Shown piece by piece: positions 6,293 through 10,506 of a stretch of DNA of 11,042 bases; within the stretch, counting starts at the first letter, position 1, and every line of letters begins with the position of its first letter. A program made the translations under genes and the position numbers. Origin of the DNA: Candidatus Aenigmatarchaeota archaeon (lineage in GTDB: Archaea > EX4484-52); contig JAGLPV010000023.1 of NCBI GenBank assembly GCA_023137195.1, positions 1-11,042 on the forward strand, written 5' to 3'. Below the pieces are notes generated by a model. It did no database searches and was not told where the DNA came from. It saw only the letters and a list, made by a program, of their open reading frames with translations.

Positions 6293-6766
6293 ATGGCAAA
6301 TGTAACTAACCTATTATTGGGCAACCTAACAGATATTGGTTTCTTTGAGTTGCTATTACCCTGGATATTATTTTTCACGCTTCTTTATGTGGTTTTTAAG
6401 AAAACGAATCTCTTTGTTGAAGAAACGCAGAATATAACACTTTCCCTTGCGTTGTCTTTATTTATCGTCAATTTTACGCCACTTGGTCTCTCCTTTGCCA
6501 ATATACTGAGTCGTTCGTTTGGATTTATGGCACTTGGCATGGTATTTATATTGATTGCATGGGTCTTTTGCGGGATGCTTGGCGTAGATACAATCTCTCT
6601 TGTCCGAGATAATAGGAATATCTTTTTTGCTATCGGCGTCTTATTTGCATTCATTGTTTCTGTAAAAATTATGGGAAATTATATTGGAGATATTAGTGAT
6701 ATGCTCGTTACACTCTTTTTTGTAGTATGTATTTTTGGCGGGATGTATTACGTTACAAAAAGTTAA
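6293..6766 (+). CDS. Hypothetical multi-pass membrane protein (~5 TM)
   Basis: 157 aa hydrophobic ORF with 'LLLPWILFFTLLYVVFKKTNLF...NITLSLALSLF'. TATAAATA at 6265-6272 ends 21 nt before the ATG. Confidence 0.8.
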   Translation: MANVTNLLLGNLTDIGFFELLLPWILFFTLLYVVFKKTNLFVEETQNITLSLALSLFIVNFTPLGLSFANILSRSFGFMALGMVFILIAWVFCGMLGVDTISLVRDNRNIFFAIGVLFAFIVSVKIMGNYIGDISDMLVTLFFVVCIFGGMYYVTKS

Positions 6767-6786: not shown

Positions 6787-8523
6787 ATGGCGAAATTCAT
6801 TCTTGCTGATGAAAACATGGAGGCTAATTCTGACGGGAGTAATCCCCTGAATTTTGCCGGGAAAAATCTTGGAAAATGCGTGTTTGTTGCAGGAGCGAAC
6901 CAGAAAAATTATGTTATGAACCCGACCACCAAAAGTGGTGGGATTGCAGGGATATTAACCGGCTCTTTTTTTGAAGCAGGAAAAGATGGATGGACTATCA
7001 AGAAGGGCGCAGAATCTTTTTATTGCCCGATAAGTTTCGTGTCATTCTATCGCAATACGCAGGAAAAAAAAGAAATGCTGTATAATAAAATAAGAGAAGG
7101 GCTGAAAATAATAAAAACAGACATAGAAGAATTTAATCAGCTGGATGATAAAATATCTAAATATAACGCCCAGATAAATCAATTAAACAATCTGAAATCC
7201 GCCAACGAGAGTGCTAAAAAACAGGCAGAACTGTATTTCAAACATATGTTCATCAATGAAATAGATTATTTTAGCGGAAGCATACAAAAAGAAGAAGGAA
7301 AAGCAAGTCTTGTATCTATGCAAAAAAAGAGTTTCCCGACCATTATTGATGATTTTTTAAGCCTGAACAAGGCTTCTGAACTTGAAACAAACAGTTATCT
7401 TAATAATATTCCTACTGTTGAAAAGAACCTCCTTAAAAGTAAACTAACGGCATACAACGAATGGATGCAAATATACCAAAGTACGCTGAAGTCAAGATTA
7501 GATCAATATGGTCAGATAAAAAGAAGCAAGGAATTCGTCATAAACCAGACAAAGGAATCATTGAAACCGCATATTACGCAATATAAACTGTTTAAAGATG
7601 CCTTATCCTCTGCAGGAAAACTGAAAAATGAAGTTTCTTTTTTTATGAAACAGATTGGTTCCCAGGAGCCGTTTGAAAGTTTTATGGTCAATTATCTCGT
7701 CAAAGGATTGACCGATCCCCACCAGACAATGGCTCCGAACCAATTTGTAAGAGAAGCTGAAATGGATGGCGCTTATGGAAAATACGGGTGCTATGATAAG
7801 TTCATGAGAGAAGAACTGGTATTCAATTTTGATCACGGGCTTATCTGTGATTTCCCGTGGATTACAGAAGAATGGGTTGAGAAAGAAGTAAAGGCAATTA
7901 CCTCTGCAGGCTACTGGAAAAAGAATAAACTCTATTTTAATTTCTTTAAACTACAAAGCAACAAGACTATAACCGAACTTCCTCTGGGCAATGGAAATGC
8001 TATTATGGAAGATGCAGATATTATAGCCAGTATGTTTGTCATGAGCAGGAATGTAATGGCGGCAAAAATGCTTGAATTGGCGGCAAAGGAAGAAGAAGCA
8101 GTATTATATGTCGACAAAATGCTTGGTCTTGTTCCGAAAGTTAATGGGAGAAAAATAATAAAATATGAAACAAAGGGATTTAATTATGTTGTTGGAGGAA
8201 ATGTCTATGATTCAAAAGCAAAACTGCTTGAAACTTTTCCAAAAGATAAATTTAACCTAGTAAGGCATAAAAAACCCAGTAAACTTATTGAATCTATAAA
8301 AGATATGTTCTTTATCAATTTCGATTTTAGGGTGCCCGGTGGTCCTTATGAACACCAATTTCACAGATCGCTGAATAAAATATTCCTCAAGGGTCCTGTG
8401 ATTCAAAGGTATAATGGATTATGCGGATTGATTCTAAAAAGAATGAATATTGAAGGACCAATAACGCCACTTCAGTCGGAAGGAATGAAAATATTCCAGG
8501 ATCAGATAAATAGGGATCAATGA
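6787..8523 (+). CDS. Hypothetical soluble protein with central coiled-coil/helical region
   Basis: 578-aa ORF 20 nt after the previous gene, with heptad-like 'LKIIKTDIEEFNQLDDKISKYNAQINQLNNLKSAN'. No catalytic motif recognised. Confidence 0.8.
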   Translation: MAKFILADENMEANSDGSNPLNFAGKNLGKCVFVAGANQKNYVMNPTTKSGGIAGILTGSFFEAGKDGWTIKKGAESFYCPISFVSFYRNTQEKKEMLYNKIREGLKIIKTDIEEFNQLDDKISKYNAQINQLNNLKSANESAKKQAELYFKHMFINEIDYFSGSIQKEEGKASLVSMQKKSFPTIIDDFLSLNKASELETNSYLNNIPTVEKNLLKSKLTAYNEWMQIYQSTLKSRLDQYGQIKRSKEFVINQTKESLKPHITQYKLFKDALSSAGKLKNEVSFFMKQIGSQEPFESFMVNYLVKGLTDPHQTMAPNQFVREAEMDGAYGKYGCYDKFMREELVFNFDHGLICDFPWITEEWVEKEVKAITSAGYWKKNKLYFNFFKLQSNKTITELPLGNGNAIMEDADIIASMFVMSRNVMAAKMLELAAKEEEAVLYVDKMLGLVPKVNGRKIIKYETKGFNYVVGGNVYDSKAKLLETFPKDKFNLVRHKKPSKLIESIKDMFFINFDFRVPGGPYEHQFHRSLNKIFLKGPVIQRYNGLCGLILKRMNIEGPITPLQSEGMKIFQDQINRDQ

Positions 8524-8742
8524 TTGTGTTCTTTCCTGAGTATTGTGTGGCAATAGTATCTCCACAGGATGTGAGAAAATTTCATATTCTTTTTTGCACA
8601 TTCACCTTTGTTGAATGACACATATGGAAGTGCAGAACCGTTAAAATCTACGAGATTCTTACAATCATAGCAGAAAACATAACTATAGCAAAACACATAA
8701 ATAATCATAAAAGTTTCCCCTACGCAAATACTACTTTTAAGC

Positions 8743-9033
8743 TTATTTTCTGCTTACCATTTATACACAGCAGAAAATAATACAAAGATATAAATCTGTA
8801 TTTAGATGGCATTTATGTATTTTGCTAGTATATCGCGCCACACACTTGCATTACTTTTGTGCCGCGATATAATACAATAAGACAGTTGTATTTTCTACTT
8901 GTGTATTTGACTGTGAATAAATTTGAAAGTTAAACAGGCAAATATATACGAAGACACAATTATTATAACAGAAACAATTGTGTTTGAGAATATCTCACCC
9001 CGCATACTCGTAAAACTTTTGTGTTGTGAGATA
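8743..9033 (+). repeat. Diverged tandem duplication (~160-166 nt offset), each unit holding three hairpins
   Basis: 8829-8871 vs 8991-9033 align ungapped at 30/43. TACAAAGATATAAAT (8781) aligns with TACGAAGACACAATT (8947). Hairpins 8743-8780 and 8904-8944 have similar arms. Confidence 0.7.
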
Positions 9034-9092
9034 GCACAGATAATTGAAAATATACAAATCTCGTGGAAATCTGTGGATTAAGTCGGTTCCTG

Positions 9093-9221
9093 TGGGTTAT
9101 TCAATGAAATTGAATATGCAAAAAAGCTCTACTTCATCTGTCTTTGACAGATGTGCAGAAACTCATAGAGATTTTTCCGCATTTTCGCATCCATGGGTTA
9201 TTCAATGAAATTGAATATGCA
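9093..9221. repeat. Perfect 28-bp direct repeat x2 (TGGGTTATTCAATGAAATTGAATATGCA), period 101, internally palindromic
   Basis: Identical copies at 9093-9120 and 9194-9221, each containing TATTCAAT-GAA-ATTGAATA. Confidence 0.95.
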
Positions 9222-9252
9222 GAAAATATAGAATTTTCTCGCATCCTGTGGA

Positions 9253-10506
9253 TTAAAAATCCAAATCCTCGTCTTCGTCAGGAGAGCCGAATATTTTGTA
9301 CATGAGAGATTTCTTTTTCTTCTTGTTTTCAAGCTCTCTTTTTCTTTGCTTTTCCCATATTGGATTTAGTTTTGCTTCTAATCCTTTTAACTCGCCTTTA
9401 TGGTTGCCTATTCCACATGTGTTTCCAACGCCAAAGACCAGTATTTTTTTTGCATCGCTTTCTTTAATGGAGTTTGTCACTTTCTCTATTACTAAATCTG
9501 AGGCATCAAAGACTTTTTTTACTATTGGAACCGATGCTTCTTCCGGCTTCATCTTAACTACAATGCCGTCTATAGGGATGTCGTTTTTTACTCCTACTTC
9601 CTCTATTTTCGACCTGTCGACACCGATGCCTCCCATCATCACTCCAACTCCTTCTGCAACAGAACCTGTTTTTTCGCCTTCCATTTTTCCTGCTGCATCA
9701 ATGGTGATGATGTAGTCAATCTTCTCTTTTTTGTAAAGTTTTTCTATTGCCTTACCATCTTTTCCTAATGCCGAACCCGGTCCTTCTGCCTTCATTACAA
9801 ATACTGTTTTTCCTCCTATTTTTTCTTTACTTACAATAACATCCTCTTCTATTATCTCTCCTTTTTTTGTCTTCAATCTTGCCGCAACATATGGACCTAT
9901 TGCATCGCCAATTGGAATATTATCCAGGAAAGCTTTTGTTGCAATAACATTTGATTTTGCCATTTTTATCAACATTGGCATGTACATCTGGAGTATAAGC
10001 ATTATCTGTATATTTCCTGTTTTTCTTAGCGTTATTATTAAGTGATTCAATATCTTGTATATCTGGTGCACTCCCATAGCGCCCATTGTCGCAAATTTCA
10101 TATCTTTTTTTTCTTCCTTTTTCAAATCTGGCACCATCTTGTTAATAAAATGGTTAAACCTGTTCTCTGAACGGTCTATCACATGCTCTAGCTTTTTTAA
10201 GATTCCGTACGGGTCTATATCAACTGGTGTAGATATAAAGAATTCCATAAAATTACGGAAATTTTGTTTCATTGACCCGGTTACTGGTTTTTTTGTTTTA
10301 GCTTTTATTTTTTTAAACATCAGACTGGATGCTTTCTCATCCCATTTTTTTATTTTCACTAACTGCGCCTCACATCTCCAGACGGTCTGTAGAATCATTA
10401 TCTTCTGTCCAAAAATCATGAAAATAATAAATATTACATAAAATAATATGTTAATAATACTGTTTCCTTCACTTGGACCAAATAAACCAAATAACATTGT
10501 TTCCAT
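9253..10506 (-). CDS. DUF1512 family archaeal protein (N-terminal TM, conserved C-terminal alpha/beta domain)
   Basis: 'PVDIDPYGILKKLEH', 'PIGDAIGPYVA', 'KAEGPGS', 'ITIDAAGKMEGEKTGSVAEGVG..MGGIG', 'GVGNTCGIG' match DUF1512 (COG4046-like) as I recognise it. Confidence 0.88.
   Translation of the reverse strand: METMLFGLFGPSEGNSIINILFYVIFIIFMIFGQKIMILQTVWRCEAQLVKIKKWDEKASSLMFKKIKAKTKKPVTGSMKQNFRNFMEFFISTPVDIDPYGILKKLEHVIDRSENRFNHFINKMVPDLKKEEKKDMKFATMGAMGVHQIYKILNHLIITLRKTGNIQIMLILQMYMPMLIKMAKSNVIATKAFLDNIPIGDAIGPYVAARLKTKKGEIIEEDVIVSKEKIGGKTVFVMKAEGPGSALGKDGKAIEKLYKKEKIDYIITIDAAGKMEGEKTGSVAEGVGVMMGGIGVDRSKIEEVGVKNDIPIDGIVVKMKPEEASVPIVKKVFDASDLVIEKVTNSIKESDAKKILVFGVGNTCGIGNHKGELKGLEAKLNPIWEKQRKRELENKKKKKSLMYKIFGSPDEDEDLDF

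Follow-up and report, generated by a model that had tools for sequence, protein, structure and literature searches.

A long spacer between convergent genes

The window analysed here, an 11,042-nucleotide stretch from the genome of a tiny uncultured DPANN archaeon that resembles Aenigmatarchaeota (1.42 Mb; completeness, 84.8%), contains a region of about 690 bp (positions 8561-9252) bounded by long inverted repeats. Is this region a single element, namely, a large RNA, a replication origin or a non-autonomous mobile element, as proposed in the first-pass annotation, or is it made of several? The region is the spacer between the 3' ends of two convergent genes, 729 bp from stop to stop, and the remaining intergenic gaps in the window span 20-105 bp. 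The left gene (6787-8523, plus strand) is an ORF for a 578-aa protein for which a Pfam search returned no family; it is single-copy, with no other copy in the genome. The right gene (9253-10506, minus strand), also single-copy, encodes a DUF1512 protein of 417 aa (PF07431, 4.1e-37; PF23542, 7.2e-49) and is present in 29 of 31 related genomes. None of the nine large ORFs in the window codes for a transposase, four small ORFs within the region (52-63 aa) have no Pfam match at E <= 0.1, and a tRNA scan yielded no genes.

The inverted repeats initially reported are all present. A repeat search recovers the outer pair, 8561-8588 with 9225-9252 (28 nt, 89% complementary), with a 21-nt core that on direct reading matches at 20 of 21 positions; the pairing of the left arm with an inner right copy, 8589-8622 with 9093-9126 (34 nt, 79%); and the short pair 8647-8657 with 9057-9067 (11 nt, 91%). 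GAACCG at 8635-8640 and its complement CGGTTC at 9084-9089 are both read directly in the sequence. In addition, there is a direct repeat, 9093-9125 and 9194-9226 (33 nt, 97%). Across 8300-9500, the best ungapped inverted match scores 19 vs 12.5 +/- 2.0, a value reached by one of 100 dinucleotide shuffles, and aligning the left half, with gaps, to the right half in reverse complement yields a score of 22 vs 10.3 +/- 1.2 (shuffle maximum, 15), which none of 100 shuffles reaches. As described originally, the right arm ends directly at the DUF1512 stop codon (9253-9255), and the outer ends carry no clear target duplication, the flanks being ATC/TCCAC on the left and GTGGA/TTA on the right.

Dispersed repeats in the spacer

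The BLASTN comparison with the same genome, suggested in the first-pass annotation, shows that every part of the region is repeated and the flanks are not. Positions 8400-9400 produced 144 HSPs, with no coverage at 8400-8559 or at 9270-9400 and a maximum of about 32 within the region; a genome search with the region listed 74 matches. The entire region thus consists of short repeats dispersed through the genome, between two single-copy genes, and the full-length composite matches itself only. Genome-wide, nhmmer profiles of the constituent repeats detected 44 matches for A (32 strand-specific loci), 43 for B-short, 29 for B5', 40 for C and 12 for Bins2. We conclude that, very probably, 8561-9252 is not one element but a nest to which two or three families of dispersed repeats contribute at least five copies. 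Among the three options offered initially, the non-autonomous mobile element comes closest, but the notion of a single element closed by its own inverted repeats does not hold.

From left to right, the first component is a compact copy of family A (8561-8658, minus strand; nhmmer 8629-8567, E 2.6e-13, and alignments) that consists of hairpin a, hairpin c and a tail. This copy is oriented with its tail (TCCACAGGATG...) toward the left gene and its head variant AATCTCGTAGATTTTAACGGTTC inward, and accounts for the entire left arm of the inverted repeats. It is followed by an outer family-B-type element, the 'C' variant (8666-9036, plus strand; nhmmer C model 8892-9030, E 6e-31; B-short model 8939-9032, E 6e-12), with its own segments (8666-8685, 8870-8903 and 8993-9036) split by two nested inserts; its second hairpin, TATCTCAC...GTGAGATA, corresponds to TATATCGCG...CGCGATATA of family B with compensatory changes. 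The first insert, B-long (8684-8871, plus strand), combines a B5' module (8686-8779) with B-short (8774-8870), with nhmmer hits at E 3.3e-22 and 8.9e-25. It sits in the loop of the outer B-type element with TA at both sides, has the termini TATAGC...GATATA, and is represented by full-length copies with 93% identity elsewhere in the genome (C43:7808-8000 and C39:14683-14873). The second insert, Bins2, spans 89 nt (8904-8992, plus strand; nhmmer 8895-8998, E 1.4e-15); it is also found within the second hairpin of other B copies, and its presence or absence varies in the B alignment.

The right part of the region is occupied by two further A copies. A-long (9057-9191, plus strand; nhmmer 9085-9128, E 3.6e-11, and 9151-9183) comprises, in this order, the head variant AATCTCGTGGAAATCTGTGGATTAAG, hairpin a (9093-9126), one b hairpin (CATCTGTC TTTG ACAGATG), hairpin c and a tail, and forms the inner right arm; A-long copies of 112-113 nt with 90-93% identity lie at C3:635-747, C44:2027-2138 and six more places. 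The outer right arm is a compact A copy that lacks the head module (9192-9252, plus strand; nhmmer 9192-9246, E 8.5e-13, and alignment), with the tail GCATCCTGTGGA(TT) entering the DUF1512 stop codon (tail-to-stop distance, -1). The long 'nested' inverted repeats exist because the spacer holds three family A copies, one of them reversed, for which opposite orientation alone suffices. This locus shows a route by which such structures can appear in a compact genome, through opposed copies of one small repeat.

In a metagenome contig from one run (X3; 206 nt, depth 4.96), 8683 is directly followed by 8870 and 8903 by 8993. At the first joint, it skips 186 nt (8684-8869) that end in TA..TA, with 2 nt fitting either side. 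This contig represents an allele that lacks B-long and has a single TA at the joint, the putative TA duplication being read from this one short contig. The nest would have been assembled by small, non-coding, non-autonomous repeats that inserted successively, or inside one another, into a spacer between convergent genes. The B-type element between the A copies would itself have received two insertions, B-long at a TA and the 89-nt insert.

Architecture and genomic context of the two families

Family A elements are modular and measure about 60-200 nt; they contain 2-5 hairpins and have terminal inverted repeats of approximately AATCCACAGGAACGCACGGA. In 10 aligned A-long copies and 20 compact copies, the layout is a, then b in 0, 1, 2 or 3 copies, then c. 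Full copies start with AATCCACAGGAACGCACGGA and end with ...TCCGTGCGTTCCGTGGATT; one end is missing from many copies, among them all three in the window. The terminal-repeat motif occurs in the genome five times exactly and 11 times within two mismatches. The A hairpins are kept by compensatory changes: across 21 sequences, 93.1% of the cells pair, a fraction that drops to 32-49% when the partner is slid, and six pairs change on both sides, for a total of 30 cells, which none of 500 shuffles reaches. The flanks of A copies are AT-rich, and no consistent direct repeat was found in them.

Family B is non-coding, AT-rich, strongly folded and multi-copy. All 29 elements found by their termini (49-538 nt) start with TATA(G/A)C and end with (G/A)A(T/C/G)ATA, with unrelated flanks. 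The terminal inverted repeats are weak, with about 6 of the 11 terminal bases complementary by eye.

Both families are frequent in spacers between convergent genes, which harbor 17 of the 25 classifiable A loci and 16 of the 38 B loci vs 186 of the 1078 background gaps, counts that rest on crude longest-ORF gene calls. Few loci fall inside a called ORF of at least 100 aa (2 of 30 for A and 3 of 45 for B). The tail of A lies within -1 to 4 nt of a stop codon in 10 of the 23 scorable copies, and B copies in the spacers of tandem genes have the same orientation as the neighboring genes in four cases and the opposite one in six. Copies would gather between convergent genes if insertions are least harmful there, in a genome with spacers of 20-100 bp, and as a side effect, hairpins and T-runs may contribute to the termination of both transcripts. 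The combination of compensated hairpins and a very strong convergent-spacer bias in family A fits a host function as well as selfish DNA.

Distribution among related genomes

Among 42 genomes of the order, B yielded matches in four, namely, 33 in the host, 25 in G003, nine in G001 and one weak match elsewhere, and A likewise in four, with 22 matches in the host, six in G003, one in G001 and one weak match elsewhere. Families A and B are confined to this genus. We thus document two or three genus-restricted repeat families in a DPANN archaeon that are undescribed as far as a search of the literature on MITEs in DPANN shows, which turned up neither A nor B; the supplementary MITE tables of PMC11602168 may list the MITEs of this lineage.

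The comparison of this locus with relatives, also suggested initially, gives a divided answer: the gene pair is conserved, with the orthologue of the left gene adjoining the DUF1512 gene as a convergent neighbor in both G003 and G001, but the spacer content is not. In G003, the two stop codons are about 160 bp apart, and this interval is filled by one A copy that is likely orthologous to the 8561-8658 copy, being on the same side and in the same orientation. In G001, the spacer of about 1060 bp contains an extra ORF and none of these repeats. B copies in G001 (L032) and G003 (L037) adjoin genes whose host orthologues have no listed repeat. Two A copies, the one here and another at C24, occupy the same sites in G003, so that some A copies are old and retained. 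For the region as a whole, the original description as a retained functional element finds no support, in view of the different spacer content in both congeners and the metagenome contig that lacks B-long and the 89-nt insert.

Similarity to known repeats and the search for a mobilizing element

As in MITEs generally, the repeats are short and non-coding (under about 600 bp), occur in many dispersed, mostly intergenic copies, and vary in presence and absence; no cognate autonomous IS with the same ends was found in the host genome (84.8% complete) or in the viral and metagenome scans. The elements in this spacer are MITE-like repeats; the families are new, but the kind of element is already known, an ordinary type of selfish DNA in a little-studied host. 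According to PMC11602168, DPANN genomes are among the most MITE-dense in archaea. Family B resembles the TA-duplicating MITEs derived from IS630/Tc1-mariner elements, for which PMC11602168 gives MITEEc1_IS630 as an example, in being short, non-coding, AT-rich, folded, multi-copy and genus-specific, and in having TA at both ends, one allele with a single TA and nested insertions. It differs from these in its weak terminal inverted repeats and in that no IS630-type transposase was found in the host genome, 84.8% complete, and the transposase relics in two congeners are not surrounded by B termini; the likeness described here is one of build. A DDE transposase of the IS630/Tc1-mariner type, which duplicates TA, would mobilize family B in trans, and some transposase that recognizes the A terminal repeats would move family A.

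Family A is reminiscent of the BOX elements of Streptococcus pneumoniae, which are described in PMC3049150 as boxA, boxB repeated n times and boxC. In family A, 0-3 tandem middle hairpins are flanked by an invariable hairpin module on the 5' side and an invariable module on the 3' side, with terminal inverted repeats and tight folding. Like BOX, RUP and SPRITE in the account of PMC3049150, family A is often clustered with other repeat families. It differs from BOX in its archaeal host, unrelated sequence, far stronger convergent-spacer bias and ends that are often flush on stop codons, and the analogy is one of architecture, not of membership. REP, BIME and REPIN elements go with RAYT transposases. 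Family A shares with them short palindromic hairpins at gene 3' ends, compensatory change and occasional inverted doublets, but has terminal inverted repeats and several modules, the doublets are exceptional (two among 32 loci), and no Y1 transposase (PF01797) was found in the host genome.

Searches of the host genome, 84.8% complete, with PF13358 (IS630-type DDE_3), PF07282 and PF01797 returned no match; in a control search, PF01797 matched six of 14 genomes. Four matches to PF01609 in the host genome have ends unlike those of A or B. Broken DDE_3 relics are present in the congeners G002 and G003, with no B termini near them, the nearest being one 13-mer with two mismatches. No inverted pair of A terminal repeats 0.7-3 kb apart was found in the genome. 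Scans of viral contigs with the B core and with the A hairpin pattern gave 0 matches each. A metagenome scan with the 18-nt A terminal repeat retrieved 32 stretches, none of which matches the A or B models; 31 of these have a GC content of 0.46-0.65 and look like chance occurrences, and the remaining one (L079; GC 0.33) contains the terminal-repeat module of A without the hairpins.

Alternative explanations for the region

Could the region be one composite or fold-back mobile element, with the inverted A copies for long terminal repeats, that moves or persists as an intact 690-bp unit? The two outer ends are indeed inverted copies of one A terminus, another two A copies lie head to head at C3:541-603(-)/634-731(+), and a remnant of such a pair lies to the left of C55:10217. 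Nevertheless, we consider this highly improbable because the genome contains no second copy of the whole unit, only two inverted pairs are found among 32 A loci, the others being solo or direct, and no duplication flanks 8561 and 9252. Moreover, each inner part belongs to an independent dispersed family, G003 has a single A copy at the same site, and the contig without the inner B-long looks like a stepwise intermediate.

An assembly artefact, either a misjoin of two loci via the high-copy B repeat or a fold-back chimera, as the first-pass annotation cautioned, is highly improbable. Exact contigs from up to four DNA runs of one study cover 7900-8713 (X1; from 8179 in X2; to 8707 in X3), and overlapping exact contigs tile 8845-9900, so that both outer junctions are covered. 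Between these, at 8714-8844, the highest-copy repeat, none of the four runs provides an exact bridging contig, so that the evidence for the join is the original assembly together with synteny, the flanking genes being convergent neighbors also in G003 and G001; a contig gap of this type is not evidence either way. The shorter allele bridges this gap, its contig linking 8683 to 8870-8903 and then to 8993-9090. Metagenome depth in the four runs is about 16 on the flanks and up to 576 in the bin 8771-8837 (X1). That copies of both families lie at many contig ends could be taken to favor a misjoin and means that these repeats break assembly, which matters for the binning and annotation of such genomes.

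A replication origin, with the A arms as ORB-like Orc1/Cdc6 sites (TCC-N3-GGA dyads) inverted around an unwinding region, is extremely improbable. There is some likeness to archaeal oriC: the motif TCCACAGGA/TTCCTGTGG is similar to the TTCC...GAA core found in ORB and mini-ORB, for which PMC1904270 gives the example TTCCAGTGGAACT; inverted TCC...GGA-type dyads enclose an AT-rich stretch, as in the origins described there; the non-coding stretch is unusually long for a compact genome; and a GINS gene is located 5 kb away. However, the arms are a repeat found at about 30 loci, the center itself consists of dispersed repeats, and the spacer is not conserved in G003 and G001. The GC content is 0.30-0.37 across the region, much like in the flanks, with no trough and no distinct AT-rich core, and the 700 bp contain two TCCNNNGGA dyads, whereas other places have three. 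The sole orc1/cdc6 gene is on another contig (C45:2506-3714), and no cluster of ORB-like motifs was found beside it. There is also a precedent in Pyrococcus, where scattered mini-ORB matches outside oriC are not bound by Cdc6 (PMC1904270).

A single large structured non-coding RNA with a long basal stem is extremely unlikely as well: the fold of 8561-9252 is stable, with paired ends (MFE, -206 kcal/mol vs -132 +/- 7 for 20 shuffles; z = -9.9), but inverted copies of hairpin repeats must fold in this way. Furthermore, the whole window has no Rfam match at E <= 1 on either strand, the arrangement is seen at this locus of this genome only, an allele lacks 186 and 89 nt of the interior, and the parts occur in either orientation relative to neighboring genes, as in the tandem-gene spacers that contain B. 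A false lead is thereby removed, as in all likelihood neither an origin nor a giant RNA is located here.

A possible role of family A in the host

Within the preferred interpretation of the spacer as a nest of dispersed repeats, it is conceivable, though doubtful, that family A is a mobile 3'-end cassette on which the host relies, one that spreads by transposition and lands, or survives, flush on stop codons. The A...T termini beside TA can, on this interpretation, rebuild a TAA stop on either strand, and the compensated hairpins with A6/T6 arms could end or stabilize transcripts in both directions between convergent genes. If so, the nest of 690 bp would amount to a two-way terminator that has overgrown, and certain A copies, such as those here and at C24, would have been kept at the same sites across species.

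Repeat composition of the spacer

The window is one complete 11,042-bp contig (C16) of an archaeal genome (G000; 1.42 Mb in 57 contigs, 84.8% complete) and carries archaeal genes for DUF373, a MinD/ParA-type ATPase, GINS51, DUF1512 and a MoxR ATPase. The host is placed among the DPANN archaea on the strength of its DUF1512 protein, whose closest named relative (81% identity) is from a MAG titled Candidatus Nanohalarchaeota, followed by relatives from Aenigmatarchaeota MAGs. The region examined here, 8561-9252, belongs to the spacer (8524-9252) between two convergent genes, one for a 578-aa protein (6787-8523, plus strand) and the other for the DUF1512 protein recognized by Pfam (9253-10506, minus strand); the remaining intergenic gaps of the window measure 20-105 bp, as the first-pass annotation stated. 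The 578-aa protein, which has orthologues in the congeneric genomes G001 and G003 (54-65% identity), and the 157-aa product of the adjacent gene (6293-6766) both lack a Pfam family match. The DUF1512 orthologue of another genome of the order (G025:C15:1643-2842) is read through two TAG codons, which might mean that the gene is broken or a stop recoded, or that the sequence contains an error.

What decides the nature of the region is its copy number. When 8400-9400 was compared with the same genome by BLASTN, 144 HSPs were obtained (74 matches in a separate listing); they leave 8400-8559 and 9270-9400 uncovered, whereas nearly all of 8561-9255 is present in 5-32 copies. The genome compared with itself has 191 patches matched by at least three other copies, and 31,013 of its bases are matched by at least five; some of these patches are repeats within protein-coding genes, and that in the window (8567-9250, 684 bp) is the largest consisting purely of short repeats. 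Depth summed over contigs in four metagenome runs from a single cold-seep study is about 16 on the flanks and climbs within the region, reaching 576 at 8771-8837 (run X1). The region is a nest of small mobile-type repeats of new families, a real but ordinary structure. Among the options first proposed for it, a non-autonomous mobile element comes closest, although several dispersed families nested in one spacer take the place of a single element; a replication origin and a large RNA do not hold.

Two families, A and B, were resolved by nhmmer profile searches. Family A is represented by a copy at 8561-8658 (minus strand), a long form, A-long, at 9057-9191 (plus) and a further copy at 9192-9252 (plus). 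B-long, composed of the B5' module and B-short, occupies 8684-8871 and has full copies at 93% identity on two other contigs (C43:7808-8000 and C39:14683-14873). The element hosting it is of B type but diverged (the 'C' variant) and has its own parts at 8666-8685, 8870-8903 and 8993-9036, and this outer element also contains an 89-nt insert, Bins2 (8904-8992), present in 12 copies genome-wide. Because copies of these families sit at many G000 contig ends (for example, C12:29-89, C15:24463-24509, C4:270-331, C55:378-432 and C28:1-98), they probably account for assembly breaks.

Architecture of families A and B

Family A yielded 44 nhmmer hits in G000, at 32 strand-specific loci. The aligned copies have a modular build: a left terminal module (approximately AATCCACAGGAACGCACGGAACCCACAGGAA, or the variant AATCTCGTGGA...), hairpin a (ATTCAAC-AAA-GTTGAAT), hairpin b (CATCGGTC-TTTG-GACCGATG), absent or in up to three tandem copies, hairpin c (GAAAATC...GATTTTC) and a right terminal module (...TCCGTGCGTTCCGTGGATT), inverse to that on the left. 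When 20 compact copies among the 44 hits (model positions <=9 to >=60) were aligned with the G003 copy, standard pairs filled 93.1% of 363 cells, and 6 of 18 pairs varied on both sides (30 cells), for instance C-G 13/U-A 7, U-A 11/C-G 10, G-C 11/A-U 5 and U-A 14/G-C 6. Neither the paired percentage nor the covariation score was reached by any of 500 shuffles, tests that are inflated by the relatedness of the sequences; sliding the partner by 1-3 columns lowered pairing to 32-49%. Kinship of the copies notwithstanding, the two variable pairs of hairpin a occur in every one of their four combinations. This architecture resembles that of pneumococcal BOX elements, described in PMC3049150 as boxA and boxC with boxB in varying number between them, bearing terminal inverted repeats, folded, and clustering with other repeats.

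All 29 family B elements found by their termini start with TATA(G/A)C, and they end with GATATA (24), AATATA (3), GACATA (1) or GAGATA (1); their flanks are unrelated and their sizes range from 49 to 538 nt. The short form consists of two hairpins, the second with compensated variants (TATATCGCG/CGCGATATA, TATATCACG/CGTGATATA and TATCTCAC/GTGAGATA), and longer forms are distinguished by inserted modules. B elements of G003 conserve the first ~30 and last ~55 nt around a different interior. Family B resembles IS630/Tc1-mariner-type MITEs that duplicate TA. MITEs are described in PMC11602168 as widespread, with DPANN among the most MITE-dense archaeal genomes.

Movement and distribution

One contig of metagenome run X3 (206 nt, depth 4.96; flank depth 5.9) links 8683 to 8870, skipping 186 nt that carry TA at start and end, with 2 nt fitting either side, and likewise links 8903 to 8993 without the 89-nt insert. 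This single contig appears to be the B-long-free form of the locus, bearing one TA in place of the two of the filled form. Other contig joints, such as 8705 to 8794, were set aside as short-form copies of other loci, given the foreign letters in them. Misassembly of the region might be suspected from the filled centre, which has no independent bridging contig, but exact contigs cover both outer junctions, synteny in two congeners backs the gene order, and the X3 contig spans the centre in the shorter allele.

Four of 42 genomes of the order match family B (33 matches in G000, 25 in G003, 9 in G001 and one weak hit) and four match family A (22, 6, 1 and one weak hit, respectively); neither family matched G002, of the same genus. 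Between the same gene pair, G003 has ~160 bp from stop codon to stop codon, filled by one A copy that is oriented like the window's left copy, and G001 has ~1060 bp with another ORF and no such repeat. This extra ORF, read by eye (L010:598-1330, ~240 codons), is absent in G000 and G003. At orthologous sites, C24:6025-6083 and L040:1507-1565 are shared, and copies in stretches L032 and L037 versus C39 are not.

Origin of the inverted repeats

The nested inverted arms noted in the first-pass annotation were recovered by repeat search and exceed shuffled sequence. The inverted pairs are 8561-8588/9225-9252 (28 nt, 89%), 8589-8622/9093-9126 (34 nt, 79%) and 8647-8657/9057-9067 (11 nt, 91%), accompanied by a direct repeat at 9093-9125/9194-9226 (33 nt, 97%). 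Of 100 dinucleotide shuffles of 8300-9500, one reached the score of the best ungapped inverted match (19) and none that of the gapped match of the left half to the reversed right half (22; shuffles 10.3 +/- 1.2, maximum 15). The outer arms correspond to the tails of a pair of oppositely oriented A copies. The inner arms pair hairpin a of the left copy with hairpin a of A-long, and these same two copies contribute, through their head modules, the TCTACGAGATT/AATCTCGTGGA and GAACCG/CGGTTC pairs.

If the region were a composite element, a second copy might be expected, but there is none, and inverted A pairs occur only twice among the 32 loci. The A motif is reminiscent of the TTCC...GAA core of ORBs, but the region is not a replication origin: its arms are present at ~30 loci, GC stays at 0.30-0.37 with no trough, only two TCCNNNGGA dyads occur in it, the single orc1/cdc6 gene (C45:2506-3714) has no motif cluster alongside, and scattered mini-ORB matches in Pyrococcus are, according to PMC1904270, unbound by Cdc6. 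Nor is it a large RNA: although the fold is strong (-206 kcal/mol, z = -9.9 versus 20 shuffles), it would come from any inverted hairpin-repeat pair, and the region has no Rfam match, no conservation and one allele without 275 nt of the interior.

Gene context

By crude longest-ORF gene calls, A loci lie mostly between convergent genes (17 of 25 classifiable; 6 tandem, 2 divergent), with two more inside ORFs and three at contig edges; for B loci the convergent fraction is 16/38, against a background of 186/1078 gaps, and B loci in tandem-gene spacers show no orientation bias (4 same versus 6 opposite). Among 31 A tail hits, leaving aside 6 without the tail motif and 2 at contig edges, 21 of 23 point towards a gene 3' end, and in 10 of 23, including 9192-9252 (window 9247-9255), the GTGGAT tail lies -1 to 4 nt from the neighbouring stop codon. 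Heads are flush in 8 of 18 rows, two of which duplicate other counts, and a single G003 copy spans its spacer from stop to stop. Placed beside TA, the A termini (A...T) would restore TAA on either strand. The positions of the copies are compatible both with tolerated insertion in tiny convergent spacers and with a role at transcript ends. Position at gene ends is shared with REP elements, but G000 has no RAYT gene.

Candidate mobilising genes

PF07282, PF01797 and PF13358 had no match in the 84.8% complete G000, broken DDE_3 relics in G002 and G003 have no B termini close by, and the search found no inverted A terminal-repeat pair around a gene-sized stretch. Four PF01609 places in G000 (three above cut-off) were rejected as movers, their ends being unlike A or B. 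Viral scans gave no match; a metagenome scan returned 32 stretches, none matching the family models and 31 of them GC-rich and apparently due to chance.

Contig C53 (G000:C53:1-1787) is an insertion sequence encoding a 519-aa DUF772 + DDE_Tnp_1_6 transposase, with ends CAGGCTGTCC...; its 25-nt ends overlap three contig ends (C47, C37 and C57). It is flanked by TAAT on each side and lies within another small repeat, 'E' (ATCCACGAGATT...AATCTCGTGGAAATCTGTGTTAAT). On a metagenome contig (L079:2289-4118), an unrelated 532-aa DDE_Tnp_1 gene follows repeat 'E', within ~3 nt of the C53 insertion point, and 'E' may host an insertion hot spot. A family of about five genes (C4:54392-55219, C2:46844-47693, C55:30016-30867, C48:4077-4835 and C1:63176-63681) encodes proteins of ~275 aa, with an N-terminus that we take to resemble a Bro-N/antirepressor domain; one member is directly followed by an 'E' and an A repeat.
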